Assembly (NCBI RefSeq): GCF_001306055.1
Contig: NZ_LGHJ01000006.1
Coordinates: 1 to 32,000, forward strand
DNA: 32,000 nt
Origin: Bellilinea caldifistulae
GTDB lineage: Bacteria; Chloroflexota; Anaerolineae; Anaerolineales; Anaerolineaceae
Reading direction: 5' to 3'
In this document: positions 11,273 through 32,000 of the stretch, one piece after another
How positions within the stretch are numbered: position 1 is the first letter of the stretch
Layout: every line of letters starts with the position of its first letter
Position numbers and translations under genes: made by a program
Notes under the pieces: generated by a model
What the model was told of the DNA's origin: nothing
The model's input: the letters and a program-made list of their open reading frames with translations, nothing else
The model's database searches: none

Positions 11273-12214
11273 TTACTCGCTAACGGGCTGAAAACGGCTG
11301 CCTAACTCCGCCTGAATTTCCTGCTGGTGGGCGAAAATAAAATCCCAAAAGACGGCTGCGGCGCTGCTGAGCGGATTGAGCCGGTGGCGAGTCATGTAAA
11401 TTTGCTGTTCAAGATGAACGCCGCGTATGGACACAGTGCGTACATCCGGCAGGATCAGGTTTTGCAGCACCATCTGAGAAACAAAACCCACCCCCACGCC
11501 ACGCTGAACGGCAACCGCAATCGCCTCTGAATTGCCCATGCGCAGCACCAGCGCTAATTCGTGGATGTTGATGCCGTGCCTCGCCAGCGTTTCTTTGACT
11601 ACGCGGAAAGTGCCGGCGCACTCCTCGCGCAGGATGAAGCGTTCGTTTTTAAGTTCCTCCACTTCGATTTCCCCGCGCCTCGCCCACGGGTGATTCGCCG
11701 GCACGATCAGGTGAATGGGGTCGGTTATGAAGGGGCGGAATTCGTAGTGGTGATCGAACTCGTCAATACTGCTGGAAAAGGCAAAATGGGCTTCCCCTTT
11801 CTCCAGCATCTCCAGCGCACCTATTCGACTCATCACCAGGCACTGAGCGCTGACCCGCGGATAATGGCGTAAAAAGTCACTCACCACCACCGGCAGGACG
11901 TACTTGCCCGGGGTGGTGCTGCAGGCAATCGTTAAAAAGCCGCTGATCTGCCCGCGGCTGGCATCCACCACCTCGCGCGCCCGCAGGTTGAGGGTGACCA
12001 GCTGGCGGGCAACCGGTAAGAAACTTTCACCCGTCTGGCTTAGCTGTAACCTTCGCCCGCTGCGCACGAATAAAGCCTCGCCCAATTGATTTTCTAACGC
12101 CTGAATGGTTTGGGTGACGGCGGGCTGGGAGAGATTCAGTTTTTTGGCTGCCTGAGAAAAGTTGAGCGTTTCGGCAGCCACGATAAAAACGCGCAACTGG
12201 TGGGGGTCAAACAT
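11273..12214 (-). CDS. LysR family transcriptional regulator
   Basis: N-terminal wHTH FSQAAKKLNLSQPAVTQTIQALENQLG plus a LysR substrate-binding domain. Divergent from the cytochrome/rhodanese genes. Confidence 0.92.
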   Translation of the reverse strand: MFDPHQLRVFIVAAETLNFSQAAKKLNLSQPAVTQTIQALENQLGEALFVRSGRRLQLSQTGESFLPVARQLVTLNLRAREVVDASRGQISGFLTIACSTTPGKYVLPVVVSDFLRHYPRVSAQCLVMSRIGALEMLEKGEAHFAFSSSIDEFDHHYEFRPFITDPIHLIVPANHPWARRGEIEVEELKNERFILREECAGTFRVVKETLARHGINIHELALVLRMGNSEAIAVAVQRGVGVGFVSQMVLQNLILPDVRTVSIRGVHLEQQIYMTRHRLNPLSSAAAVFWDFIFAHQQEIQAELGSRFQPVSE

Positions 12215-12227
12215 GACATACTCTCTT

Positions 12228-12245
12228 TTTATAAGGAAAACTTAT
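12228..12245. promoter_or_regulatory. LysR-type box (ATAAG-N5-CTTAT, fits T-N11-A); TTTATAAGGAA motif repeated at 12319-12329
   Basis: Palindrome at 12231-12245, just downstream of a minus-strand TAGAAT (12249-12254), which is a typical autoregulation position. The 11-nt motif TTTATAAGGAA recurs next to a plus-strand TAGAAT (12314-12319). Confidence 0.4.
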
Positions 12246-12274
12246 CCAATTCTATCATGAGTTCCAATGATGGA

Positions 12275-12292
12275 TTGTGACAATATTCACTA
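12275..12292. promoter_or_regulatory. Rex/CRP-FNR-like palindrome TTGTGAC-AATA-TTCACTA upstream of the cytochrome gene
   Basis: Matches 12 of 14 specified positions of the Rex operator consensus as I recall it (TTGTGAA-N4-TTCACAA). It also fits TGTGA-N6-TCAC(A). It is centred about 42 nt upstream of the transcription start predicted from the TAGAAT at 12314-12319. Confidence 0.4.
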
Positions 12293-12356
12293 ACTGACAG
12301 ATTAAACAAACCTTAGAATTTATAAGGAAGTGTATTCCCCGTAAAAGGAGCAAATT

Positions 12357-12608
12357 ATGGGAAAATTACGCATCTGGCTTGGATTGCTGGCAGGGTTCTT
12401 GATTCTGCTGGCGGGCTGTGCGCGGGCTACTCAGCCGGCCCCAACCGCCACCAGTGAGGTCCCTGCCCGGCCGACCGCTCCTGCTGCAACCGCCACCTCC
12501 CAGCCGCAGGTCAATTACTGCGTCGAATGCCACACCGACAAAGACCGCCTGATTCAAACGGCTAAACCGGAGGAAGAGGTCATCGAAGAATCGGAAGGGG
12601 CTGGCTGA
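12357..12608 (+). CDS. N-terminal segment of a multihaem c-type cytochrome lipoprotein (signal peptide, lipobox, 1 CxxCH), ending at an in-frame TGA
   Basis: AAGGAG SD 7 nt upstream. Lipobox LLAGC and one haem motif CVECH. It is in the same frame as 12618-13721 and separated from it only by TGA plus 3 sense codons. Confidence 0.7.
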   Translation: MGKLRIWLGLLAGFLILLAGCARATQPAPTATSEVPARPTAPAATATSQPQVNYCVECHTDKDRLIQTAKPEEEVIEESEGAG

Positions 12609-12617
12609 GGGGGCGAA

Positions 12618-13721
12618 GTGGCTCCGTTGGAGCCTTGGGAGAAAGTTTTAGTTAGCGCCAGTTTTCTGGAAAGTACGCACGGACAGTTTACCTGCGTGCA
12701 GTGCCATGGCGGAACCCAATCACCCGACAAGGACACTGCCCATACTAATCTGATTGCTAACCCCTACACCGACAGTGTCGGCCGCTGCGACCGCTGCCAC
12801 GCCGAAATCATGGCCACCTTCCCGGATAGTCTGCATGCCTCACTGTCGGGCTACCCGGTTGCCATGCAATCGCGCAGCGTACCGGAAAACCACCCCGCCC
12901 TGCAGGAAGCCTACAACAATCACTGCTCGAAATGCCACAGTTCCTGCACCGATTGTCACATTACCCAACCGCAGCACCTCGGCGGCGGCTTTCTGGATGG
13001 TCATAATTTTGTCAAAACACCGCCGATGACGCGTACCTGTACGGCCTGCCACGGCACGCGGGTGGGAGATGAGTACCTCGGCAAGCACGAGGATATCCCT
13101 GGCGATGTCCACTTCCGGGTTGGGCGGATGAACTGCGTTGCCTGCCACAGCGGCGAGTCGCTCCACAACACCCCGGCGGATGCGCGCGGCAACCGCTACT
13201 GGGGCGAGCAGTCACCGGCCTGCACCACCTGCCACACCACGGTTGGGCAAAAAGACGACCCCATCTTGCAGCATACCATCCACGGGGAAAAATTATCCTG
13301 TCAGGTGTGTCATTCGGTCAGTTACACCTCCTGCGATGGCTGTCATGTGGCCATCAGTGATAAGACCGGCCAGCCGTTCTTCCGCACCGAAGCCACCTAC
13401 CTGACCTTCTTTATCGGTAAAAATCCCCTGGATAACCAAAACCGCCCCTACGAGTATGTGCCGCTGCGGCATGTGCCGGTTGCCCCGACCAGTTTTGAGT
13501 ACTACGGCGAAAATCTGCTGCCCAATTTTGATTTGCGTCCGACGTGGATGTACGCTACCCCCCATAACATCCAGCGCAAGACGCCTCAAAATCAGTCCTG
13601 CAACAGTTGTCATGGAAATGCGGCTATTTTCCTGACGGCTGATAAGGTCAAACCGGAGGAGTTGAACGCCAACCAGCGGGTGATTGTGGAAGAGATACCC
13701 GCTCCCATTCCGGGACAATAA
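12618..13721 (+). CDS. decahaem c-type cytochrome segment (10 CxxCH), no signal peptide of its own
   Basis: Haem motifs CVQCH, CDRCH, CSKCH, CTDCH, CTACH, CVACH, CTTCH, CQVCH, CDGCH, CNSCH. The nominal GTG start has no SD or export signal. It is most parsimoniously the continuation of 12357-12608 (454 residues in total). Confidence 0.8.
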   Translation: MAPLEPWEKVLVSASFLESTHGQFTCVQCHGGTQSPDKDTAHTNLIANPYTDSVGRCDRCHAEIMATFPDSLHASLSGYPVAMQSRSVPENHPALQEAYNNHCSKCHSSCTDCHITQPQHLGGGFLDGHNFVKTPPMTRTCTACHGTRVGDEYLGKHEDIPGDVHFRVGRMNCVACHSGESLHNTPADARGNRYWGEQSPACTTCHTTVGQKDDPILQHTIHGEKLSCQVCHSVSYTSCDGCHVAISDKTGQPFFRTEATYLTFFIGKNPLDNQNRPYEYVPLRHVPVAPTSFEYYGENLLPNFDLRPTWMYATPHNIQRKTPQNQSCNSCHGNAAIFLTADKVKPEELNANQRVIVEEIPAPIPGQ

Positions 13722-13748
13722 AAACTATTTTAGTGAGAGGAAAGAAAG

Positions 13749-15482
13749 ATGAACCGAAAAATTGCTTTACCGCTAATTCTCATCATCATCCTGAGTATGC
13801 TGCTGGGCGCCTGTGCCCCGGCGGCTACCCCCACTGCCGCGCCGGTGGTTGAACCGACCACCCCACCGGTTGTCGAGCCCACCGCGGTACCCACCGCCGA
13901 ACCGCAGCCCGAACTGGATATTCTCGCGCTGTGGAGCGGTCTGGTAGCCGAACTGCCGGCTGAAAAGGGTTATGGCACCGTCAGCGCCACAAAACTGAAT
14001 GAGGATCTGGCTGATAATCCGCCCTTCCTTTTGGATGTGCGCGAAGCTGCCGAAGTAGAAAAGGACGGCTACATTGAAGGGGCTGTGAATATCCCAATTC
14101 GCCAGTTGTTGCAGAATCTGGATAAATTGCCGGCGATGGACAAGCCGATTGTGATCTACTGCGCTTCCGGCCATCGCGGCGGATACGCGCTGGCTGCCCT
14201 GAAACTGCTGGGCTATCAGAATGTGCGCAATCTGGGCGGCGGTTTGGGCGCCTGGAAGAAAGCCGAACTGCCGGTGGTTACCGGCTCACTGCCTGCCGCC
14301 CCGGCCGCCGGTAGCATGCCGCAAATCAAAGATCAGGCGCTTTTTGACCTGCTCAACGACTGGCTGAGCAACCTGCCGGAGGGCTTCCGCACCGTCAAAG
14401 CGGACAAACTGAACAGCGACCTGGCGGATGGTAAAAAGGTCTTTTTGCTGGATGTGCGCAACAAAGCCGAGGTCGAAAAGAACGGTTTTATTGGCGGCAG
14501 CACCCACATTCCCTTTGAGGAATTATTTGCCAAACTGGATCAACTACCCGCCAAAGATGCCGAGATTGTGATCTACTGTGCATCCGGCCACCGCGGGGCG
14601 ATTGCTCAAATGGGGCTTGCCCTGCTGGGTTATGAAAAAGTCGTTAACCTGGGGGGCGGCCTGAATGCCTGGAAGGCAGCCGGTTTTGCCGTGGAAGGCG
14701 TGGTGGACTGGAACGCCCTGTGGGGCGATTTCCTGACCAACTTACCCGGGGACTTTTACACCATCTCGGCTACCAAACTCAATGAACAGCTGGCTGATAA
14801 ACCGCCTTTCCTGCTGGATGTGCGTGAAACTGCCGAACTGGAAAAAGATGGTTATATCGAAGGGGCTGTTCACATTCCCGTCCGCCAGCTGCTGGATAAT
14901 CTGGACAAACTGCCGGCGCAGGATCAGCCAATTGTGATCTACTGCGCCTCCGGCCATCGCGGGGCGTTTGCGCTGGCGGCTTTGCGCTTCCTTGGTTATA
15001 CCAATGTAGTCAATCTGGGCGGTGGCCTGAACGCCTGGAAGAAAGCCGAATTACCGGTTGTGACCGGCTCGCTGCCGGCAGAGCCACCCGCCGCTACTGC
15101 TCCGGCGGTGGATGCCCTGCGGCTGGAGGGACTGAAAGCCTTCTTCGCCGGTCTGCCGGAAGGTTTTGGCACCATCAAAGCGGCCGACCTGAATGCCGCG
15201 CTTGGCGAAGCCAGCAAACCATTCGTTTTGGATGTCCGTACCGAAAAAGAATGGAACGAGGAAGGTTACATTGAAGGTTCAGTACTGATTCCGATCAACC
15301 AGTTGTGGGGACGGCTGGCGGAACTGCCCGGCAAGGATGCCCGTATCGTCGTGCTGTGCAAATCCGGTCATCGCGGTGCGCTGGCGATGATGGCGTTGCG
15401 CATGAATGGCTACACGGATGTGGTCAATCTGGGCGGGGGGTTGAACGCCTGGGCGGCCGCCGAACTGCCGCTGGTGAAGTAA
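13749..15482 (+). CDS. exported lipoprotein with four tandem rhodanese (sulfurtransferase) domains
   Basis: Lipobox LLGAC followed by a Pro/Thr/Val linker. Four rhodanese modules each retain an active-site loop: YCASGHRGG, YCASGHRGA, YCASGHRGA, LCKSGHRGA. GAGAGGAAAG SD upstream. Confidence 0.88.
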   Translation: MNRKIALPLILIIILSMLLGACAPAATPTAAPVVEPTTPPVVEPTAVPTAEPQPELDILALWSGLVAELPAEKGYGTVSATKLNEDLADNPPFLLDVREAAEVEKDGYIEGAVNIPIRQLLQNLDKLPAMDKPIVIYCASGHRGGYALAALKLLGYQNVRNLGGGLGAWKKAELPVVTGSLPAAPAAGSMPQIKDQALFDLLNDWLSNLPEGFRTVKADKLNSDLADGKKVFLLDVRNKAEVEKNGFIGGSTHIPFEELFAKLDQLPAKDAEIVIYCASGHRGAIAQMGLALLGYEKVVNLGGGLNAWKAAGFAVEGVVDWNALWGDFLTNLPGDFYTISATKLNEQLADKPPFLLDVRETAELEKDGYIEGAVHIPVRQLLDNLDKLPAQDQPIVIYCASGHRGAFALAALRFLGYTNVVNLGGGLNAWKKAELPVVTGSLPAEPPAATAPAVDALRLEGLKAFFAGLPEGFGTIKAADLNAALGEASKPFVLDVRTEKEWNEEGYIEGSVLIPINQLWGRLAELPGKDARIVVLCKSGHRGALAMMALRMNGYTDVVNLGGGLNAWAAAELPLVK

Positions 15483-17942: not shown

Positions 17943-19085
17943 ATGACTTTTATCCAGCAAATTGATCTGTCCTGCCGTGCAGAAGTGGAAAAATTTTTGC
18001 AATTACCGTACCGGTTGTATCGGGCTGTGCCGCAGTGGGTGCCGCCGGTGCAGTCTGATATCCGCCGGATGCTTGAACCGCACCGACACCCGTTTTACCG
18101 CCACTCACAGGCGGCTTTTTTCCTGGCCTGCCGCCAGAAGCAGGGGCCGGCAGTGGCGCGCCTGGCAGTCTTATTTCACCGCCCCTACAATCAGCACAAC
18201 CATGAACGGACTGCGTTTTTCTACCTGTTTGAGGCTGAAGATGATCCGGAGGTGGTACGAGCCCTGTTCGCTGCTGGCGAAACATGGGCGCTGAAACAAG
18301 GAGCCGACCGGCTGATTGGGCCGAAGGGCTTTTCTCCGTTGGATGCCATGGGGGTGCTGGTCCAAGGCTTTGAGCATCGCCCGGCTTTTGGCATCCCTTA
18401 CAATTTGCCGTATTACCCCGCTTTGCTGGAAGCCTGCGGCTTTCAGCCGCGGGAGGATATCCTCTCCGGCTATTTAAGCGGGAAAGCAGAATTTCCCTCC
18501 AAAATTCATCAGATTGCCGAGAGGGTGATTCAAAAGCGCGGTTTTCGCATTGCGCAGCTGCATAGCCGCGCCGACCTGCGCCGGCTGATTCCGCGTCTGA
18601 GTGAAATGTACAACCGGGCAATTATGGACACACCCGGCAATGCGCCGATTGACTCGGCCGAGATCGAGGACATCCTGCGGCAGGTCCTCTTCTTTGCAAA
18701 TCTGAAACTGATTAAAATCCTGCTCAAGGATGAGCAACCAATCGGCTTTTTGCTGGCTTATCCGGATATTTCGGCAGCCTTGCAACGTACCGGCGGGCGT
18801 TTATTGCCATTAGGCTGGCTGGACTGGTGGCTGGAACTGAAACGCACCCGCTGGTTGAATATCAATGGGATGGGCATTGTGGAGGAATACCGCGGACTGG
18901 GCGGTACGGCCGTTCTATTCAGCGAAATGCACAAGAGTATTCAGGGCGGGTGCTTTCAGCATGTGGAAATTGTGCAGATTGGCGCAGAAAATCAACGCAT
19001 GCTGCGCGAACTGCGTGATATAGGAGTGGATTTTTACAAGGCTCACCGCCTCTATGGCAAGCAAATTGGCGGCAACATCCGCTAA
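17943..19085 (+). CDS. GNAT-fold N-acetyltransferase-like protein (380 aa)
   Basis: The N-terminal FLQLPYRLYRAVPQWVPPVQSDIRRML..HRHPFY.H..AAFFLA pattern is one I recognise from a family of ~380-aa GNAT-like proteins. The C-terminal GMGIVEEYRGLGGTAVLF is an acetyl-CoA loop. Confidence 0.65.
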   Translation: MTFIQQIDLSCRAEVEKFLQLPYRLYRAVPQWVPPVQSDIRRMLEPHRHPFYRHSQAAFFLACRQKQGPAVARLAVLFHRPYNQHNHERTAFFYLFEAEDDPEVVRALFAAGETWALKQGADRLIGPKGFSPLDAMGVLVQGFEHRPAFGIPYNLPYYPALLEACGFQPREDILSGYLSGKAEFPSKIHQIAERVIQKRGFRIAQLHSRADLRRLIPRLSEMYNRAIMDTPGNAPIDSAEIEDILRQVLFFANLKLIKILLKDEQPIGFLLAYPDISAALQRTGGRLLPLGWLDWWLELKRTRWLNINGMGIVEEYRGLGGTAVLFSEMHKSIQGGCFQHVEIVQIGAENQRMLRELRDIGVDFYKAHRLYGKQIGGNIR

Positions 19086-23639: not shown

Positions 23640-23742
23640 TTACGATGTGGATGGCATGCCGAGCGTCAGCAACACCTGCACCGCCCTGCGCTTGGTGCAG
23701 TGCAGGTGGATATTTTCCGCCGTGCCTCCGCCAAGGCTTTGG
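23640..23742. repeat. interspersed-element copy (CACCTGCAC hairpin module) leading into the tandem array
   Basis: Inverted-orientation homologue of 5621-5727. It carries the hairpin CACCTGCAC(23673-23681)-N18-GTGCAGGTG(23700-23708). Confidence 0.6.
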
Positions 23743-24274
23743 GGGAGATTGCCGCGCTCGCTGCGCTTGCTCGCAATGAAGTAAACCCCTTAATGTCACC
23801 CCGAACGGAGTGAGGGGTCTCCCCGCCGGTCTTGTGGGAGATTGCCACGCTCGCTGCGCTTGCTCGCAATGAAGTAAACCCCTTAATGTCACCCCGAACG
23901 GAGTGAGGGGTCTCCCCGCCGGCTCTGCGGGAGATTGCCGCGCTCGCTGCGCTCGCTTGCAATGACGTAAACCCCTTAATGTCACCCCGAACGGAGTGAG
24001 GGGTCTCCCCGCCGGTCTTGTGGGAGATTGCCGTCCTCGCTAGCGCTTGCTCGCAATAACGTAAACCCCTTAATGTCACCCCGAACGGAGTGAGGGGTCT
24101 CCCCGCCGGTCTTGTGGGAGATTGCCGCGCTCGCTAGCGCTCGCTCGCAATGAAGTAAACCCCTTAATGTCACCCCGAACGGAGTGAGGGGTCTCCCCGC
24201 CGGCTCTGCGGGAGATTGCCGTCCTCGCTAGCGCTTGCTCGCAGTAACTGACGTAAACCGGTTGATGTCTCCCC
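23743..24274. repeat. tandem array of a 93-94 bp non-coding unit, 5 full copies plus 1 partial
   Basis: Units start at 23743, 23836, 23929, 24022, 24116 and 24210, each beginning GGGAGATTGCC. A ~49-nt block GTAAACCCCTTAATGTCACCCCGAACGGAGTGAGGGGTCTCCCCGCCGG is invariant in the five full units. The few SNPs and a 1-nt indel all lie in the other half. The array ends at a T6 tract (24275-24280). Confidence 0.9.
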
Positions 24275-24385
24275 TTTTTTGCCATGTAGCGGGGTTGCCA
24301 CCAGTGAAATTTTTTGCAATGAAATTGCAATGAAAAACCCGCCAATTTTAATAAATTTCTAAGAATTTCATGCTATATTAAAAGT

Positions 24386-24424
24386 GTCAATCGCCTGGGT
24401 GCCCCCCTCACCCCGGCGATTGAC
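24386..24424 (-). terminator. possible terminator hairpin of the CBS-NuoEF-PAS-PP2C operon
   Basis: The minus strand reads GTCAATCGCC-N19-GGCGATTGAC followed by ACTTTTAAT, starting 14 nt after the phosphatase stop. Confidence 0.5.
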
Positions 24425-24437
24425 GCTTTAGAGGGGG

Positions 24438-25604
24438 TTAGCAATACTCGATCTGCACGTCTTTGTTATACGATTGCAACACTTCGGCGATCCGTTCGAT
24501 CAGATAACGGCGGATCGAAATGTTGCGCGGTAGCAGCGGGTTTTGATAGACCGGATTGATGGACTGGCCGACCAGAAAGTAAATCGCATCGGCGTTGAGC
24601 ATTTCACGGGTCAGCAGGTAGGCCCCATTTTCATCCGGGGCAAGATTTTCCAGCGAGCCTTTGCTGGCGCGCAGCAGCTCGAGCGCGGCCGCCATCGTCA
24701 AAATCCCTTCGGTGACCAGATCAATGCCCGGCAGGCGGCCGATGGCGGGGATGTCCGCCCGCATCGTTTCCAGGCGTGTTTCCACACTGGTTTTCAGAAA
24801 GCTGGCAACGATATTGGCCGTCGTTCCGCCGCAGACGGCTTTACGGCCCTCGAACGCCAGCAGACGGTCTACATACACATAGTCATGCCCATCATCAATC
24901 GGCGGCCCGCTGAAGATCATCAACGCGTTGCGTTTGCGCGCCAGAATGCCCACAAAGGTTGAATCGTCACCCGGCCGAAAGCCATATAAACGGTAGGTGG
25001 TGCTCATCACACTGTTGACCACCGTGTGAGCGGCATATACCGGCCGGGCATAGACTTCATCCTGAATGTAACGGGCGATGTTCTCCCAGCCCCAGCCGAA
25101 GTTCATGGTTGTGCCCAAACCGGCGTACAGCACCCCGTCACTGACCAGTCCCAAAAAGTCGCCCAGTTCCAGCTGTCCGCGGTAGAGGGTAATTTTTTTA
25201 TTGAGTATCTTTTGTTGTTCCATCTCCAGCGCCGTACAAACGCCGTTTTTGAAGTAAAACGGCGGTGGGTTGTCGAAATTGATGATGCGGAATGAATAAT
25301 CGTGATGATCCACCGTCAGAATGGTAAAGGTGGCGTAGGCAATCCGCCGCTCGCGGTCTACCGGCAAGGTGCGGATGACCGTGTCAATCACCTCGCGCAG
25401 GGCGGCTTCCTCGCGCAGCATGGTGATGATGATCTCGGTGGTCAGCGTGGCGAGGATGCTGGCTTTCACCCCGCTGCTTAGACCGTCTGAAACGACAATC
25501 GTGGTGCGTTCTGGGGTTTTGAGGGTGCGCACCTGATCGCCGCACAGTTCTTCACCGGCTTTGTTGAGCTGTTTTTGAAAAATATCGAGGAAGATGCCGT
25601 TCAT
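24438..25604 (-). CDS. SpoIIE/PP2C-family protein phosphatase with uncharacterised C-terminal half
   Basis: N-terminal GEELCGDQV...VVSDGLSSGVKASILATL...YATFTIL...LVSDGVLYAG resembles the SpoIIE-type phosphatases encoded next to sensory [FeFe]-hydrogenases in Firmicutes. The start overlaps the PAS gene stop (ATGA). Confidence 0.8.
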   Translation of the reverse strand: MNGIFLDIFQKQLNKAGEELCGDQVRTLKTPERTTIVVSDGLSSGVKASILATLTTEIIITMLREEAALREVIDTVIRTLPVDRERRIAYATFTILTVDHHDYSFRIINFDNPPPFYFKNGVCTALEMEQQKILNKKITLYRGQLELGDFLGLVSDGVLYAGLGTTMNFGWGWENIARYIQDEVYARPVYAAHTVVNSVMSTTYRLYGFRPGDDSTFVGILARKRNALMIFSGPPIDDGHDYVYVDRLLAFEGRKAVCGGTTANIVASFLKTSVETRLETMRADIPAIGRLPGIDLVTEGILTMAAALELLRASKGSLENLAPDENGAYLLTREMLNADAIYFLVGQSINPVYQNPLLPRNISIRRYLIERIAEVLQSYNKDVQIEYC

Positions 25605-26095
25605 CCCTGTTCTTTTTCGACCAGTTCCAGCAGTTTCAGCAGGCTGACTTTGGTTTCGGCGGTGGTTTCGCCCAGCAAGCCGGCAATCTTCTGAGCCACG
25701 CTCATCTGCTTATCCACCACGGCATGAACTTTGAGGATGGTTTCGCGGCGCAGGTTTTGCATTTCGCTGCGCTGTTTCCACTCGTGGGTCAGGTCTACCA
25801 TGATGCCGGCTACCACCCCTTCCTCACGCACCGGAAAGATGACCTTGCGGACATACAGGTCGTATTGCGGGTACTCGCGCTCGATGCCCACCATTGCCTG
25901 CCCGCTCTGCCACACCTGCTGAAAATGGCTGACATCTTCCAGCACCTCGGCGGCATTCCGTCCGATCAAATCTTGCGGTTCGGCGCGGAACATACGGCAA
26001 AACGCCGGATTGACCACCTGAATGATCATCTGCGGCGTCATCACCACCAGCCCGTTCGGGTCGTAATCCCATAACAATTCCCACAGCGATTTCAT
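25601..26095 (-). CDS. stand-alone PAS domain protein with C-terminal helical tail
   Basis: LWDYDPNGLVVMTPQMIIQVVNPAFCRMFRAEPQDLIGRNAAEVL is a canonical PAS start. 164 aa with no kinase or output domain. The start overlaps the ferredoxin stop (ATGA). Confidence 0.75.
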   Translation of the reverse strand: MKSLWELLWDYDPNGLVVMTPQMIIQVVNPAFCRMFRAEPQDLIGRNAAEVLEDVSHFQQVWQSGQAMVGIEREYPQYDLYVRKVIFPVREEGVVAGIMVDLTHEWKQRSEMQNLRRETILKVHAVVDKQMSVAQKIAGLLGETTAETKVSLLKLLELVEKEQG

Positions 26096-26364
26096 GACTC
26101 GGCAACTCCCACTTTGCTCAACACCTCACGGATGAATTTTTCGCGCACATTGCGGCGGTTGATGTCCAGGATGGAGTCTTCGTCGAATTTCAGCACAATC
26201 GCGCGCGCACAGGTGCCCAGGCAAAAGGCTCCCTTCAATTCCAGCCGATCCTGCAAGCCGTATTCTTCGATCAGGCTTTGCAGAACGGGCAGAATTTCAA
26301 ACACGCCGGCCTGATGACAGGCTGACCCCATACAAACATGCAATACGGTTTTGGGTGTGTCCAT
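26092..26364 (-). CDS. thioredoxin-like [2Fe-2S] ferredoxin
   Basis: The C-x4-C (CMGSAC) ... C-x3-C (CLGTC) spacing is like NuoE/HydC-type [2Fe-2S] domains. The start is ambiguous: ATG at 26364 or GTG at 26397. Confidence 0.72.
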   Translation of the reverse strand: MDTPKTVLHVCMGSACHQAGVFEILPVLQSLIEEYGLQDRLELKGAFCLGTCARAIVLKFDEDSILDINRRNVREKFIREVLSKVGVAES

Positions 26365-26465
26365 GGGTTTGTTCCGCTTATTATACGCCGGGTTCACGGT
26401 TCAAAGGTGGCGGCTGGCAGCCCTCTGCCGACCAGAGATGGCTGCCAGCCTTGCAGGGAGGAGAC

Positions 26466-28118
26466 TTACTGGCCGAGGGCAGCTGCTGCGTTGACTTCTT
26501 CGGACTGCTCACTGCGGCGGATTTTGCTCAGGTACTCGTGACGGAAGTATTTGAGCGAACTCAGCACCGGGTTGGGCGCCGATTTGCCCAATCCGCACAG
26601 GCTGGTGGTTTGCATCATTTCGCACAGGGCTTCCATCTGTTCCAGATCGGCTTCGGTGGCGTTGCCTTCCAAAAACTTGTTGAGGATGTGGTAGATTTTG
26701 ACCGTCCCAATCCGGCATGGCACGCACTTACCGCAGGATTCGTCCATGCTGAATTCCATGAAGTAACGCGCCACACTGACAATATCGGAGGTGTCGTCAA
26801 TCACGATCATCCCGCCCGAACCCATGATCGAACCGAGGCGGGTCAGGTTTTCGTAGTCCACCGGTGTATCCAGCAGCTCTTCGGGAATACAACCGCCCGA
26901 AGGCCCGCCGGTCTGCACGGCCTTGAAGCGGTGTCCGTTCGGCACGCCCCCGCCGATGTCAAAGATGATCTCGCGCAGGGTGATGCCCATTGGCACTTCC
27001 ACCAGGCCGGTGTTGGCAATTTTGCCGGTCAGGGCAAATACTTTGGTGCCTTTGCTCTTTTCGGTGCCGATGGAGGCAAACCACTCTCCGCCATTGCGGA
27101 TGATGGCCGGTACGTTGGCGTAGGTTTCCACGTTGTTGATCAGGGTGGGTTTGCCATCCAGCCCGCTGATGGCCGGGTAAGGCGGGCGCGGGCGCGGCAT
27201 ACCCCGCTCGCCTTCAATGGAACTGATCAGGGCGGTTTCTTCACCGCACACAAATGCGCCGGCTCCCAGGCGGATTTCGACGGAGAAGGAAAAGCCGCTG
27301 CCGTGGATGTTTTCGCCCAAAAAGCCAGCCCGCTCGGCCTGACGGATGGCCGTGCGCAGCCGTTTGACCGCCAGCGGGTATTCGGCACGCACGTACACAA
27401 ACCCGCGGGAGGCGCCGACCGCGTAAGCGGCAATGGCCATACCTTCCAGCACGGCGTGCGGATCGGATTCGATGATCGAACGATCCATGAAGGCGCCGGG
27501 GTCGCCTTCATCGGCATTGCAGATGACGTACTTCAACCCGCCGGGGGCATCGTGGACAATTTGCCACTTGTTGCCGGTGGGAAAACCACCGCCGCCCCGC
27601 CCACGCAAGCCGGACTTTTTGATTTCGTCAATCACCCCTTGCGGACTCATGGCGGTGATCACTTGCAGCAGGGCTTTGTAGCCATCGTGGAGGATGTAAT
27701 CTTCAATTTTTTCGGGGTTAATCACGCCGGAGTTTTCCAGCGTCACCTTGTGCTGGCGGGTGAAGAAGGGTTGATTGGTGTCAATCCGCAGTTCTTCCAC
27801 CGCTTCGCCTTTGAGCAAAGCCCGCAAAATCTGCGGCACGTCCTCAACTTTGACGGTTTTGTAAAGCAGGTTATCCGGTTTGATCGAAACGACCGGGCCG
27901 GCGGCGCACAATCCCATGCAGCCGACTTGCTTGACCAGCACCTTGTCTTCCAAGCCAAGGAATTTGACTTCTTTCTCAAAGGCTGCCAGTACCGCCTGAC
28001 TGTCGGACGATACGCAGCCGGTGCTGCCGCACACGTGGATGATGTGCTGGTAGCGTTCCAATTCTTCGCGCTGTTTGCGGATGATTTCTTCGAGGTTGAT
28101 TTCATTGGTTGTTGTCAT
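26466..28118 (-). CDS. NuoF-type NAD(P)H-binding flavoprotein subunit (FMN, [4Fe-4S]) with N-terminal [2Fe-2S] domain
   Basis: GRGGGGFPTGNKW (FMN/NADH site), ESCGKCVPCRIG...CGLG ([4Fe-4S]), and N-terminal CGSTGC...GCMGLC. No C-terminal 2x[4Fe-4S] ferredoxin domain. 550 aa. Confidence 0.92.
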   Translation of the reverse strand: MTTTNEINLEEIIRKQREELERYQHIIHVCGSTGCVSSDSQAVLAAFEKEVKFLGLEDKVLVKQVGCMGLCAAGPVVSIKPDNLLYKTVKVEDVPQILRALLKGEAVEELRIDTNQPFFTRQHKVTLENSGVINPEKIEDYILHDGYKALLQVITAMSPQGVIDEIKKSGLRGRGGGGFPTGNKWQIVHDAPGGLKYVICNADEGDPGAFMDRSIIESDPHAVLEGMAIAAYAVGASRGFVYVRAEYPLAVKRLRTAIRQAERAGFLGENIHGSGFSFSVEIRLGAGAFVCGEETALISSIEGERGMPRPRPPYPAISGLDGKPTLINNVETYANVPAIIRNGGEWFASIGTEKSKGTKVFALTGKIANTGLVEVPMGITLREIIFDIGGGVPNGHRFKAVQTGGPSGGCIPEELLDTPVDYENLTRLGSIMGSGGMIVIDDTSDIVSVARYFMEFSMDESCGKCVPCRIGTVKIYHILNKFLEGNATEADLEQMEALCEMMQTTSLCGLGKSAPNPVLSSLKYFRHEYLSKIRRSEQSEEVNAAAALGQ

Positions 28119-28659
28119 CGCTCAGCCACTCCTCAATTTTGGCTTTCATTTCTTCCACACTCAACTTGCCGACAATCTGGCCATCCAGAATCATGACCGG
28201 GGCGAGACCGCAAGCGCCCACACAGCGAGCCGCCATGAAGGACAGTTTGTTATCTGGCGTGGTCTGGTTGGGGTCCAGTCCAAAGCGCTCTTTCAGCCAG
28301 TCGGTGATCTGGTCGTTGCCTTTGACATAGCAGGCTGTGCCGGTGCAAAGCACGAGGGTATGCTCGCCGGCGGGTTTGCTCATGAAACCGTGGTAAAAAG
28401 TCACCACGCCGTAGACTTTGGAAAAAGGAACTTTCAACTCGCGGGCAACATAAGCCATGGCGTCATAGTCAATGTAGCCGAAGGAATCCTGGACGACGTG
28501 CAGCACCTCGATCAGCGCGCGCGGGTTGTAGTTGTTCTTTTTCATGGTGGCGGCCACCAGTTTCCAGCGCTTATCGCTCATATCGGGGACGAAGTGCTTG
28601 CAGGTTTCGCGGCTTTTTTCCTGTTCTTTGGTTTCGGTGGTGATGGTTGCGTTTGTCAT
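28102..28659 (-). CDS. NuoE-type [2Fe-2S] subunit
   Basis: CTGTAC...CVGACGLAP motifs. I chose the ATG at 28659 with a GAGAGG SD; the track ORF begins at 28734. The 3' end overlaps the NuoF start by 17 nt. Confidence 0.88.
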   Translation of the reverse strand: MTNATITTETKEQEKSRETCKHFVPDMSDKRWKLVAATMKKNNYNPRALIEVLHVVQDSFGYIDYDAMAYVARELKVPFSKVYGVVTFYHGFMSKPAGEHTLVLCTGTACYVKGNDQITDWLKERFGLDPNQTTPDNKLSFMAARCVGACGLAPVMILDGQIVGKLSVEEMKAKIEEWLSDDNNQ

Positions 28660-28673
28660 GGGTACCTCTCGGA

Positions 28674-29516
28674 TTAGCCTAGGAATTTGTGGACGACGAG
28701 GCGGAACAAATCGGTTTCGGTGATGATGCCGCACAAGTCCTGATCGGAATCCAGCACCGGTAAGGCGTGGATTTTGTTCGCCAGCATCAGGCGGGCGGCT
28801 TCGGTGATGGGCTGCTCCTCGCCGATGGTGATCGGTTTGGTGGTCATGATGAACTGCAAGGGGGTGTTCAGCACCATTTCGGTGACTTCCAGCCGACCCT
28901 GGGTGGTCACCACCGAGGGGGCGGCGCTGAGCAGGTCGGTGCGGGTGACAATGCCGATCAGCAGGCCGTTTTGCAGCACCGGCAGGGCGCGAATGCGTTT
29001 GACCGCCATCATGCGTTGAGCCGCCAGTAGCGTGGTGGTGGGTTCGGCGGTTTGAACATCGGCGGTCATGTACTCGTGAACGCGGATGGTCTCGTTCAGC
29101 AGCGGCACTTCTTCAATCACCACGCGGAAAATGTCGGAGGAGGTTAACATACCCACAAGGTTTTGCTGACGGTCGAGCACTGGCAGAGCGGTGATTTTGT
29201 TTTCCATCAGCACGCGGGCGGCTTTTGCCACCGGCACATCCGGGCGGGTGGTAATCACTCCGGTGGTCATGATTTTATCCATGGTCAGGTTGCCGGCCAT
29301 GCGGTACTGCTCCCACGAATCGCGGATGACGGGGGTCACATCGGCGCGCAGCAGATCGCGCTTGGTGACGATACCCACCAGCCGCCCGCCATCCACAATT
29401 GGCATGGCGCGGATCTGGTGGCGGTTCATGATGCGCAATCCGTCATGCAGGCGGGTAGCCGGGTCGCAGGTGATGGCCGGGCTGGTCATCCAGTGTTGAA
29501 CCAGAGCATGTTTCAT
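28674..29516 (-). CDS. protein made of four CBS domains (two Bateman modules)
   Basis: Four repeats of the M(T)..(V/I)........(A)...M.......LPV(L/V)D....L.GI(V/I)T..DL pattern. GGAGG SD. It is the first gene of the operon. Confidence 0.88.
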   Translation of the reverse strand: MKHALVQHWMTSPAITCDPATRLHDGLRIMNRHQIRAMPIVDGGRLVGIVTKRDLLRADVTPVIRDSWEQYRMAGNLTMDKIMTTGVITTRPDVPVAKAARVLMENKITALPVLDRQQNLVGMLTSSDIFRVVIEEVPLLNETIRVHEYMTADVQTAEPTTTLLAAQRMMAVKRIRALPVLQNGLLIGIVTRTDLLSAAPSVVTTQGRLEVTEMVLNTPLQFIMTTKPITIGEEQPITEAARLMLANKIHALPVLDSDQDLCGIITETDLFRLVVHKFLG

Positions 29517-29875: not shown

Positions 29876-30535
29876 TCAACTCTGCGTCGTTTTGGGCAGG
29901 GTGATGTAGCCCTTCTGGATGGCGTACAGGGCCGCCTGGGTGCGGCTGTCCAGCTGCAACTTGGCCAGAATGCGGCTGACGTGCGAATGGACGGTGGCTT
30001 TGCTGACCACCATCTTCTCGGCAATTTCCTGATTGCTGAGGCCCTGAGCAATGTAGGCGAGCACTTCTTTTTCCCGTTCGGTGAGCGGGTCTGGCTCAGC
30101 CGGTAGGCGCGGTTGGGTCATCTCGCTGAGCAATTTGCGCGCCACAGCCGGGTGCAGGGAAGATTCGCCGCGATGAACCTGCCGGATGGCGCGCAGCAGG
30201 TCATCCGGATCGGAATCTTTGAGCAGGTAACCGGCTGCGCCGGCTTGCAATGCGGCAAATACCTTATCATCCGTGGAAAAGCTGGTCAGCACCAGCAGAC
30301 GGGCGTTCCCGTCCATTTCCAATATCCGGCGGATGGCCTCGATGCCGTCCATCTGCGGCATGACCAGATCCATCAGCACCACATCCGGGCGCAAAGCGGC
30401 GTACTGGCGCACGGCCTGCTCGCCATCGGAGCATTCGCCCACCACCTGCATCCCTTTTTCGCTTTCCAGCATGGCGCGAATGCCTTTGCGCACCACCGGA
30501 TGATCATCCACCAGCAGTACCCGAATCGTCTCCAT
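29876..30535 (-). CDS. NarL/FixJ-type response regulator (REC + LuxR HTH)
   Basis: IRVLLVDDHPVV...DVVLMDLVMP..DG (REC) and LTEREKEVL..IAQGLSNQEIA....VS..TV..H...I..KL (LuxR HTH). I chose the ATG at 30535 with a GGAGG SD; the track ORF starts at 30583. Confidence 0.92.
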   Translation of the reverse strand: METIRVLLVDDHPVVRKGIRAMLESEKGMQVVGECSDGEQAVRQYAALRPDVVLMDLVMPQMDGIEAIRRILEMDGNARLLVLTSFSTDDKVFAALQAGAAGYLLKDSDPDDLLRAIRQVHRGESSLHPAVARKLLSEMTQPRLPAEPDPLTEREKEVLAYIAQGLSNQEIAEKMVVSKATVHSHVSRILAKLQLDSRTQAALYAIQKGYITLPKTTQS

Positions 30536-32000
30536 AAGGAACCTCCACCAAAATGACCGTTCCTGCGCCGGGGGCGCTTTCAATGCTCAAACGGGCGTTG
30601 ATTTGAGCGGCGCGTTCTTGCATGATTTTCAACCCCATGCCGCTGCTCTGACCACTGCCGGGCACAAACCCGGCTCCGTTATCCGCAATTCGCAGGCGGA
30701 TCAGGCCGGGCTGCTCTTCCAGTCGCACGCTGACCTGTCCGGCGCGGGCGTGTTTTAGGCTGTTGTTGAGGGCTTCCTGAGCGATGCGGTACAGGTTTTC
30801 TTCCAGGCGGCGCGGCAGAGGGGTGTTCAAATTGCTCTGCCATTCGACCTGTGTGCCGGCGCGTTCCTCCACCGATTTCAAGCGGTGAAACAACGCACCG
30901 CTCAAACCAGCCTGTTCCAGCATCGGGGGGCGCAGTTCAAAGATCAGCAGGCGCAGCTCGGTCAGCGCGCTGCGCAGGGTTATGCCGATTTCATCCAGAT
31001 GAGACTGGACCGCCTCCAGATTGCCGCTTTTGATCTGCCTTTCGGCGGCGCGGGTGTACAGCGAGGCGGCATAGAGCGCCTGACTGATCGAATCGTGCAG
31101 GTCGCGCGCCAGCCGGGCGCGTTCTTCGGCGACGGCGGTTTGCTGAATGCGCCGGTACAGGCGGGCATGCTGGATGGCAATGGCAGCCTGGGCCGCAAAC
31201 GAGCGGGCAATCTGCAAGTCGGCTGCGCTCAGGTAACGGCGTTTGTGGTACAGTTCCAGCACGCCGATGGCCTGTCCATCCTCACCCGCCAGCGGCAAAG
31301 CCAGCAGGGCCAGATCGTCAGCGATGAGCGGGGGGTTGGGTGGCAGGTTGACCAGCAGCGGATCGCGGCGGGTGAGCATTTGAACCGGTTGCCAGTCGTC
31401 TTCACCCAGCAGGGGCGGGTTGCCGCTCTGGTGAACCACCGTCAGCCCGGCGGGCGGTTCATGCAGGCGCAGCACACACCCCGAAGCCGAAGTCAACTGC
31501 ATGGCGCCATGGGTGACCAGCGCCAGCACTTCTTTCAATTCGATTTGCTGTAAAATGGCCGCCCCAATTTCCTGCAGGCGGATGGCCTGAAAGACTTGCT
31601 GGGAGGCCAGTTCGTACAGGCGGGCATTATCCAACGCCAGCGCCAGCGAACGCCCCAGCGCTCGAATCAGGCGCAGGCGTTGTTCCGGCAGGTGGATACT
31701 GCTCTGTTCCCAGCCAAGCAGCAGGAATCCCAGCGGCTGAGAGCGATTATGGAGGGTTAGCCCCAGATAGGACCGGCCTTCCAGGTGGTCAAGGATGGAA
31801 GCGCGCAGAGAATGGCGGGCGGTTTCCTCGTTGACCCAGAGTGGATCGAAGCGGCGGTGAAGAGCCTCTGCCAGCAGGTCAGTTGTGGTATCCGGCGAGG
31901 TGGACCAGAAAGCGGCCTTTTCTGGGCGCGAGAAGCGCCCGAGTGCGTACAGCGGGTCGTAGAGGGTGGAATCGCCCTGACGGGCGTAGACCAGCACCTG
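30504..32000 (-). CDS. GAF-domain sensor histidine kinase (HisKA_3/HATPase_c), N-terminus beyond the window
   Basis: H-box ARDLHDSISQ, N-box EALNNSLKHA, and DNGAGF...GMGLKIMQERA, with two GAF-like regions upstream. The ORF is open to the right edge. The 3' end overlaps the response-regulator start by 32 nt. Confidence 0.9.
   Translation of the reverse strand, partial: QVLVYARQGDSTLYDPLYALGRFSRPEKAAFWSTSPDTTTDLLAEALHRRFDPLWVNEETARHSLRASILDHLEGRSYLGLTLHNRSQPLGFLLLGWEQSSIHLPEQRLRLIRALGRSLALALDNARLYELASQQVFQAIRLQEIGAAILQQIELKEVLALVTHGAMQLTSASGCVLRLHEPPAGLTVVHQSGNPPLLGEDDWQPVQMLTRRDPLLVNLPPNPPLIADDLALLALPLAGEDGQAIGVLELYHKRRYLSAADLQIARSFAAQAAIAIQHARLYRRIQQTAVAEERARLARDLHDSISQALYAASLYTRAAERQIKSGNLEAVQSHLDEIGITLRSALTELRLLIFELRPPMLEQAGLSGALFHRLKSVEERAGTQVEWQSNLNTPLPRRLEENLYRIAQEALNNSLKHARAGQVSVRLEEQPGLIRLRIADNGAGFVPGSGQSSGMGLKIMQERAAQINARLSIESAPGAGTVILVEVPYGDDSGTAGG

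Follow-up and report, generated by a model that had tools for sequence, protein, structure and literature searches.

The first 32,000 nucleotides (nt) of contig NZ_LGHJ01000006.1 of Bellilinea caldifistulae (assembly GCF_001306055.1), hereafter the window, contain a minus-strand gene cluster in which HoxE and HoxF, the diaphorase subunits of a bidirectional [NiFe]-hydrogenase (hox), are followed by a small ferredoxin (Fdx), a PAS protein and a SpoIIE/PP2C-type phosphatase. The locus raises the question of what role a conserved HoxEF pair plays without HoxUYH, and what the trio of genes behind it may do. An earlier sequence-only reading had treated the CBS, NuoE/HoxE, NuoF/HoxF, ferredoxin, PAS and PP2C genes as one dedicated, novel system. 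This view gives way here to a composite one: the upstream genes are the 5′ half of an Anaerolineae hox operon, and the trio has a separate distribution of its own. The interpretation adopted here, with slightly more confidence than doubt, is that the locus consists of two tandem modules, a hydrogenase-less hox front half and a HydS/HfsC-type cassette without the H-cluster, with a proposed redox-signalling mechanism. Gene and domain calls were made with Pfam on the 32,000-nt window, with all sizeable open reading frames scanned, and gave the following features, completed by folding and repeat detection.

30504-31997, minus strand: GAF-HisKA_3-HATPase_c histidine kinase (Pfam), its N-terminus probably cut by the window end
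29876-30583, minus strand: LuxR/NarL-type response regulator (Response_reg and GerE, Pfam), its likely true start being an ATG near 30535
28674-29516, minus strand: CBS protein of 280 amino acids (aa) with four CBS domains, that is two Bateman modules (Pfam, four CBS stretches, E = 1e-60)
28102-28659, minus strand: HoxE/NuoE-type thioredoxin-like [2Fe-2S] diaphorase subunit (Pfam 2Fe-2S_thioredx)
26466-28118, minus strand: HoxF/NuoF-type NAD(P)H-binding FMN/[4Fe-4S] flavoprotein, 550 aa (Pfam)
26092-26364, minus strand: small thioredoxin-like [2Fe-2S] ferredoxin (Fdx), 90 aa, first gene of the trio (Pfam)
25601-26095, minus strand: PAS protein, a PAS domain with a conserved C-terminal helical tail, 164 aa (Pfam PAS_9, PAS_4, PAS)
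24438-25604, minus strand: SpoIIE/PP2C phosphatase, whole gene, 388 aa (Pfam)
24942-25604, minus strand: PP2C/SpoIIE domain of the HfsC-type phosphatase, aa 1-221 (Pfam SpoIIE at aa 31-218)
24438-24941, minus strand: family-specific alpha/beta domain at the phosphatase C-terminus, aa 222-388 plus the stop codon (no Pfam match)
24381-24429, minus strand: terminator-like hairpin followed by UUUU, 9 nt past the PP2C stop (folding against shuffles)
23739-24243: tandem repeat array, 93 bp in 5.4 copies (repeat detection in the window)

The kinase, the LuxR-type regulator, the CBS protein, HoxE and HoxF together correspond to the 5′ half of the hox locus known from Anaerolineae. In Anaerolinea thermophila (L086) and Longilinea arvoryzae (L088) the order is histidine kinase, response regulator, CBS, HoxE, HoxF, HoxU, HoxY and HoxH; in a Chloroflexi metagenome-assembled genome (L089) the orthologous kinase and the regulator lead directly into hoxEFUYH, the CBS gene being found downstream, and hoxW is present behind as well. 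An orthologous kinase precedes the regulator, CBS and hoxEF genes in L006, L007, L009, L010, L012, L015, L086, L087 and L088, and the response regulator is 59-89% identical to those at the same position in related loci. Because orthologues occur in the same order in A. thermophila and Longilinea, the CBS gene and the two-component system are inherited from the hox locus. The two-component system seen earlier upstream of the operon is therefore present as described, and its supposed role as a boundary falls away, since it is a conserved part of the hox locus in relatives.

The assignment of the flavoprotein to the Hox type is supported by several independent lines. Its Pfam domains are an N-terminal thioredoxin-like 2Fe-2S domain, 51K FMN, SLBB and NADH_4Fe-4S, and its nearest named relatives are the HoxF proteins of A. 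thermophila (71% identity) and Longilinea arvoryzae (68%). An alignment shows every cluster cysteine in place, along with intact motifs GLRGRGGGGFPTG and CNADEGDPGAF, and in a neighbour-joining tree the protein lies within the Hox branch. Domains, identity, tree position and motifs together mark it as a Hox-type NAD(P)H/FMN subunit. It lacks the C-terminal 2x[4Fe-4S] domain of bifurcating HydB, a point already made from the letters and now seen both in Pfam and in an alignment with the HydB of locus L077. For HoxE, the best NCBIfam model is HoxE itself at 217.7 bits, just under the cut-off of 224, and orthology is supported by 58-59% identity to Anaerolineae HoxE together with synteny. Searches with tblastn for HoxU, HoxY and HoxH were negative in the window and in L005-L012, L015 and L087.

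The six genes from CBS to PP2C are tightly packed, as had been claimed, and direct reading of the sequence reproduces each junction: the CBS stop and the HoxE ATG are separated by a 14-nt gap containing a GAGAGG ribosome-binding site, the HoxE and HoxF genes share 17 nt, and the Fdx/PAS and PAS/PP2C junctions are both ATGA overlaps. The gap between hoxF and fdx is 101 nt here and reaches about 210 nt in relatives; within it, the ferredoxin alignment favours the Fdx start at 26364 and makes an alternative GTG at 26397 less likely. The hairpin noticed behind the last gene also withstands scrutiny, with a folding free energy (dG) of -30.2 kcal/mol and z = -4.06, and none of 200 shuffles folds as well. 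A consensus promoter and terminator scan performed no better than on shuffles and missed this hairpin, which has a long loop. The nearest database proteins belong to Bellilinea, class Anaerolineae, at 95-97% identity. By Pfam, no sizeable open reading frame of the window encodes a hydrogenase, a formate dehydrogenase, a STAS protein or a Ser/Thr kinase, in keeping with the earlier statements that the window offers no catalytic partner, no H-cluster domain and no RsbW-like kinase or STAS partner. No nuo genes occur in the window beyond the NuoEF-type pair, whose scores fall below the cut-offs of the NCBIfam NuoF and NuoE equivalogs.

The absence of a hydrogenase is not peculiar to one genome. 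The locus lacks hoxUYH throughout a clade centred on Bellilinea, which comprises at least 10 assemblies. The gene order of the window recurs in L005-L012, which are independent assemblies, and in L015 the two halves are convergent. The block of kinase, regulator, CBS and HoxEF stands upstream of the trio in L006, L007, L009, L010 and L012, and faces it convergently in L015. Ratios of nonsynonymous to synonymous substitution rates (dN/dS), calculated against L006, are 0.04-0.07 for CBS, HoxE and HoxF (0.069 for CBS) and 0.03-0.07 for Fdx, PAS and PP2C. Since the same order occurs in independent assemblies and dN/dS is 0.03-0.07, the arrangement is neither a matter of chance nor an assembly artefact. 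The hydrogenase-less HoxF proteins, which diverge down to about 73% identity, all fall in one clade that is sister to the hoxUYH-linked Anaerolineae HoxF in a quick neighbour-joining distance tree computed without support values. Conservation reaches 90% or more at 222 columns in 53 hoxUYH-linked HoxF proteins; the window HoxF keeps 214 of these and has switched 8.

These data indicate that hoxUYH were lost from this position in the ancestor of the Bellilinea-centred clade and that the HoxEF pair was kept intact. Judged from the sequences, the loss of the hydrogenase genes dates far back, extends over the clade and has been followed by purifying selection on what remains, so that it is no local accident, and the HoxF of this clade is still functional. 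It had been anticipated that finding the same genes next to a hydrogenase in relatives would imply a local rearrangement here. The first part holds, as Anaerolinea and Longilinea have hoxUYH beside CBS-hoxEF and cyanobacteria have hoxH beside the trio; the second does not, given the age, the spread and the purifying selection just described. A background sample of 80 more distant NuoF/HoxF loci was obtained from a metagenome scan anchored on HoxF with degenerate patterns, in which the relatives listed are at 52-64% identity. Because, among those of the 80 that have enough downstream DNA, nearly all have hoxUYH or hydA right behind the flavoprotein gene, the Bellilinea arrangement is unusual.

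The 8 switched positions of HoxF include a small group at residues 179-190, beside the glycine-rich FMN/NAD(P)H loop. Here Y179F is common to the clade, and L183T, T187I and K190D are less uniform; other clade-common changes at these conserved positions are V126T, D134N, C457S and T521S. Such substitutions could affect nucleotide preference or partner docking.

The second module, Fdx-PAS-PP2C, was traced by scanning the phosphatase alignment over 185,579 species genomes, which gave 80 loci whose neighbours were identified by tblastn with reference proteins; 73 of them, with at least 900 bp upstream, were informative. The full trio is present in 72 of these 73 loci. In 38 loci it lies directly after hoxH; most of these are labelled cyanobacteria, including the genera Arthrospira, Planktothrix, Phormidium and Okeania, and no other phylum is labelled among them. 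In the cyanobacterial loci hoxW is usually the next gene downstream, followed in some by hypA/hypB. The trio directly follows HoxF without hoxUYH in 8 loci, which are the Bellilinea clade, and follows a trimeric [FeFe] HydC-HydB-HydA in a single locus (L077, an Aggregatilineales metagenome-assembled genome). In 21 loci the upstream flank contains no hox or hyd genes; among these, Coleofasciculus has pflB-pflA upstream, and Spirulina and a Pleurocapsales strain have adhE there. Altogether, 47 of 72 intact cassettes are next to hydrogenase operons.

This distribution shows the trio to be a widespread, self-contained cassette with a preference for the 3′ side of operons for hydrogenases or fermentation, and, as far as gene arrangement can tell, a conserved and translationally coupled unit linked to hydrogen and fermentation genes. 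The six genes are thus not a single dedicated system: the trio is distributed separately, most often behind complete hydrogenase operons and frequently by itself. A literature search of partial coverage returned no paper joining hox with SpoIIE, PP2C or PAS genes and none on these three genes, and the published descriptions of hox clusters in Lyngbya are of clusters without the trio; the cassette is thus apparently undescribed.

Two observations from the census concern cyanobacteria. In L001 (9219-11161) and 37 further loci (e.g., L016, L027 and L054), many of them from filamentous cyanobacteria, the trio sits between hoxH and hoxW/hyp, a position in which it may regulate Hox and dark fermentation without having been recognised so far. 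In Planktothrix sp. UBA8402 (L062, 8947-10095), the sole informative locus without the full trio, the phosphatase is followed by hoxW and hypA/B, and the 8.9 kb upstream of it contain no PAS, Fdx or hox genes.

The affinity of the cassette is indicated by its distant relatives. A profile of the phosphatase C-terminal domain, run against 1.8 billion representative proteins, collected 1060 clusters at 50% identity; the proteins are about 380-400 aa long and without exception have the domain at their C-terminal end. Pfam SpoIIE was found in 4 of 5 sampled members. All three distant phosphatases that were sampled (P0150, P0134 and P0241, from loci whose organisms were not identified) stand directly after a HydS-type protein of 575-582 aa with ferredoxin-like, Fe_hyd_lg_C and FeS domains and, in one case, a faint PAS_8 match. 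In the P0150 and P0134 loci, whose flanks are readable, a small thioredoxin-like ferredoxin and a HydA2-like hydrogenase adjoin. Each of the three proteins of the window has its counterpart there. The phosphatase is 33% identical to P0150 over the full length; aa 13-157 of the PAS protein align with the C-terminal residues 425-568 of HydS (BLASTP E = 3e-10, 27% identity); and Fdx is 31% identical to the ferredoxin of HydS locus L085, with four cysteines in common. The PAS protein consists of the PAS domain and tail only, and no Fe_hyd_lg_C domain occurs in it or elsewhere in the window. The resemblance of the trio to companions of sensory [FeFe]-hydrogenases, first proposed from the letters, is thereby upheld by profile, gene contexts and the PAS-HydS alignment, and Fdx-PAS-PP2C can be recognised at the sequence level as a counterpart of the HydS/HfsB-HfsC module without the H-cluster.

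The gene arrangement of these distant loci is of the hfsABCD type described in Thermoanaerobacterium (PMC11837493, PMC5707799). HydS/HfsB is considered a putative sensor of H2 or of redox state, and HfsB/HydS and HfsC are thought to be regulatory (PMC5707799, PMC11837493). Mutants in hfs show altered adhE expression and fermentation products (PMC5707799, PMC11837493); specifically, deletions of hfsA/B raise adhE expression and ethanol yield, and this phenotype needs hfsC/D (PMC5707799). How HydS passes its signal on is described as an open question (PMC11376134). As a side observation, seven metagenomic [FeFe] hydCBA-type loci (L114, L125, L143, L144, L148, L151 and L168) have, some kb upstream of a HydC/HoxE-like gene, a weak HydS-like match that is 21-27% identical to the reference HydS, in agreement with reports that sensory and bifurcating hydrogenases co-occur.

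The phosphatase family is strongly conserved, with 55-60% identity between Chloroflexi and cyanobacteria, and the motifs SDG-G-G, SDG and GDD are invariant in the alignment. Its N-terminal half matches SpoIIE, RsbU and RsbX structures in Foldseek (E = 1e-13 to 1e-10), and the PP2C domain looks catalytically competent from its sequence. The C-terminal domain, earlier put at about 190 aa, measures about 167 aa. Its AlphaFold2 model is an alpha/beta sandwich with a mean confidence (pLDDT) of 90.6; it has no Pfam match, and no fold in the PDB matches it at E < 1e-3 in Foldseek, which returned weak likeness only, to methylglyoxal-synthase-like and flavodoxin-like folds. The Foldseek search with the whole phosphatase was dominated by the PP2C half. 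A phosphoheptose isomerase (SIS) match of the C-terminal domain in a PDB sequence-profile search (E = 1.4) was discarded as noise. In Fdx, the cysteines C11, C16, C48 and C52 are invariant, also in the ferredoxin of the HydS locus, and in the alignment of PAS and HydS sequences the tail VAQ-IA-LLGE--AET is the best conserved stretch. Residue C33 of the PAS protein (window 25997-25999), within the motif VNPAFC(R/K)MF, is nearly invariant in stand-alone cassette PAS proteins, whereas the HydS PAS domain used for comparison lacks it; this cysteine might act as a redox-active thiol or touch a cofactor.

A mechanism can be proposed in which the small ferredoxin would report the redox state of the electron carriers on which the adjacent oxidoreductase works. 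The PAS protein would read the redox state of the ferredoxin and, by analogy, pass the signal through its conserved helical tail to PP2C; switching by regulatory domains, as in SpoIIE/RsbU-type phosphatases, would be the model for this step (PMC5468089). The phosphatase would then dephosphorylate a phosphoprotein that tunes hydrogen and fermentative metabolism. Because the neighbouring oxidoreductase of the Bellilinea clade is the orphan HoxEF, the electrons of the ferredoxin would most likely come from NAD(P)H via this pair, which would stand in for the H-cluster domain of HydS; this is the least certain step of the scheme. The lasting adjacency of HoxEF and the trio, which survives the rearrangement in L015, supports the idea that HoxEF feeds the trio. 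Several findings weigh on the other side. In L087 (6182-11653), whose HoxF shares 74% identity, the genes behind kinase, regulator, CBS, HoxE and HoxF are unrelated ones, and both hoxUYH and the trio are missing; this weakens an obligatory coupling of HoxEF and the trio. Conversely, many genomes have the trio on its own, and among the loci without hox or hyd genes those sampled from Chloroflexi, Desulfobacterota, Syntrophobacter and Verrucomicrobiota have unrelated neighbours, so that HoxEF and the trio are not strictly in need of each other in cis. Finally, neither a kinase nor a STAS-like substrate is encoded nearby, as judged by Pfam on the open reading frames of the window.

A split operon is a possible, if doubtful, explanation of the same locus: hoxUYH, hoxW and the hyp genes would lie elsewhere in the genome, HoxEF would join a normal [NiFe]-hydrogenase in trans, and the trio would have the role that it has behind cyanobacterial hox. 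In Synechococcus elongatus and Anabaena PCC 7120, hoxEF and hoxUYH are known to form two distinct clusters (PMC3858816), the hox-type kinase, regulator and CBS genes have been kept, and the 214 of 222 conserved HoxF columns retained, with purifying selection, are what would be expected if HoxU still docks. This account is opposed by the lack of any hoxW or hyp gene within the 32-kb window and by the fact that loss at this position is common to the whole clade. Moreover, the 120 best relatives of A. thermophila HoxH (at least 69% identity) include none labelled Bellilinea, a result tempered by the expected Longilinea HoxH (79%) not being recognisable there either; two contexts inspected from these HoxH relatives are intact hoxEFUYH operons. 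That the two modules are neighbours without coupling appears quite unlikely. The trio would in that case have landed, or been left, behind hoxF, HoxEF would be an independent NAD(P)H:ferredoxin-type diaphorase or serve an unlinked enzyme, and the cassette would sense the general ferredoxin or redox pool. Trios alone beside unrelated genes in Chloroflexi, Desulfobacterota and Verrucomicrobiota, the HoxEF of L087 without a trio, and a hoxF-fdx gap that could hold a separate promoter all point in this direction. However, the cassette is strongly enriched at hydrogenase operons, where 47 of 72 are found, its place beside CBS-HoxEF has outlasted the inversion in L015, and all genes share one strand with a single terminator-like hairpin past the last of them. 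As for a decaying remnant, in which the hox genes would be non-functional leftovers after the loss of hoxUYH, the catalytic genes are indeed gone from their ancestral position; yet dN/dS is 0.04-0.07 for HoxE, HoxF and CBS, the cluster cysteines and the FMN/NADH motifs are all intact, and the arrangement is kept across a clade whose HoxF has diverged to about 73% identity. Because of these selection and conservation data the idea is rejected, and its residual probability is negligible.

The two-module interpretation, a hox front half joined to a cassette without the H-cluster, can also be extended. In its broader and still unlikely form, Fdx-PAS-PP2C would, without any H-cluster, convert redox state into protein phosphorylation in a general way, and in the Bellilinea clade the orphan HoxEF would have been recruited as its flavoprotein NAD(P)H sensor, replacing the H-cluster domain of HydS. 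If this were true, hydrogenases and enzymes of fermentation would be under the control of the trio in many cyanobacteria, in Chloroflexi and in other anaerobes, and NAD(P)H would be sensed via Ser/Thr dephosphorylation by a functional analogue of Rex that acts post-translationally. Irrespective of this extension, the output half of HydS/HfsB, that is the PAS tail, the HfsC-type phosphatase and the small ferredoxin, exists as an independent cassette without a hydrogenase domain, located behind the [NiFe] Hox operon in dozens of cyanobacteria and behind pfl or adhE in others. This points to the cassette as a candidate, apparently undescribed regulator of hydrogen metabolism and fermentation in cyanobacteria, and its small, separable proteins lend themselves to probing the signalling mechanism of sensory hydrogenases.

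The remainder of the window contributes several observations of a different kind. The repeat array reported downstream of the operon was recovered (93 bp in 5.4 copies, 93% identity between copies) and is placed between an aminotransferase gene and the PP2C terminator. Open reading frames called across it are repeat artefacts, and a CRISPR was ruled out as there are no spacers. The 93-bp unit shows no significant fold (z = 0.14) and no Rfam match, and is absent from 171 related loci; Rfam likewise found no matches in the whole window. At 11273-15482, a minus-strand LysR-type regulator is divergent from a 367-aa multihaem cytochrome c (c7/c3-like), next after which comes a 577-aa protein with four rhodanese domains; the cytochrome and the rhodanese protein may form a sulfur or thiosulfate redox pair, which would be unusual for fermentative Anaerolineae. 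For two long open reading frames, at 8723-10606 (627 aa) and 17943-19085 (380 aa), Pfam gave no match at E <= 1e-5.

Compared with known systems, the front module is closest to the HoxEFUYH hydrogenases (group 3d) of Anaerolinea and Longilinea, with which it shares orthologous kinase, regulator, CBS, HoxE and HoxF genes in the same order. The difference is that hoxU, hoxY, hoxH and hoxW are missing from the locus and Fdx-PAS-PP2C stands in their place. Anabaena PCC 7120 and Synechococcus elongatus similarly have hoxEF without adjacent hoxUYH (PMC3858816), although in those genomes hoxUYH are known to lie elsewhere. The pair differs from the electron-bifurcating HydABC/Bfu enzymes in that HoxF ends before the ferredoxin domain of the L077 HydB and no HydA is present, and from respiratory complex I in that the NuoEF-type pair is not accompanied by the other nuo genes (nuoA-D, G-N). 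In the cyanobacterial hoxEFUYH-Fdx-PAS-PP2C-hoxW-hyp clusters of Phormidium sp. CCY1219, Arthrospira platensis PCC 7345 and Planktothrix, an orthologous trio occurs in the same gene order, with 55-59% identity to the window for PP2C, about 50-58% for PAS and about 45-57% for Fdx; these clusters have a complete hydrogenase upstream and maturation genes downstream, both of which are absent at the window locus.

A PAS sensor paired with a PP2C phosphatase is reminiscent of RsbP, and the PP2C fold and metal-binding motifs are common to the partner-switching phosphatases SpoIIE, RsbU and RsbP. Unlike these, the window has no STAS substrate or anti-sigma kinase nearby, and none is annotated in related loci either for STAS or for a Ser kinase; the PAS domain is a separate protein, and the phosphatase has an extra C-terminal alpha/beta domain. 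The control of SpoIIE/RsbU by a regulatory domain nevertheless provides a plausible analogy for the window phosphatase (PMC5468089). The closest parallel to the cassette is the HydS/HfsB-HfsC module, represented by Thermoanaerobacterium hfsABCD, Ruminococcus albus HydS and Thermotoga maritima HydS. Both have a PP2C phosphatase with the family-specific C-terminal domain, a PAS domain with a helical tail (a separate protein at the window locus), a small thioredoxin-like [2Fe-2S] ferredoxin with four invariant cysteines, and linkage to hydrogenase or fermentation genes. The PAS domain of the window, however, is not preceded by an H-cluster (Fe_hyd_lg_C) or 4-Cys FeS domain; the sensor lacks an H-cluster and would therefore not sense H2 directly. 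No HydA2-like hydrogenase follows the trio, which in Cyanobacteria and Chloroflexi is found near [NiFe] Hox genes and not near a HydS-type [FeFe]-hydrogenase, the setting of the three distant loci sampled. The locus combines two known kinds of module, a Hox diaphorase and the output part of a HydS-type sensor. What deserves attention is the widespread and apparently undescribed cassette without an H-cluster, especially behind cyanobacterial hox, and the conserved orphan HoxEF.

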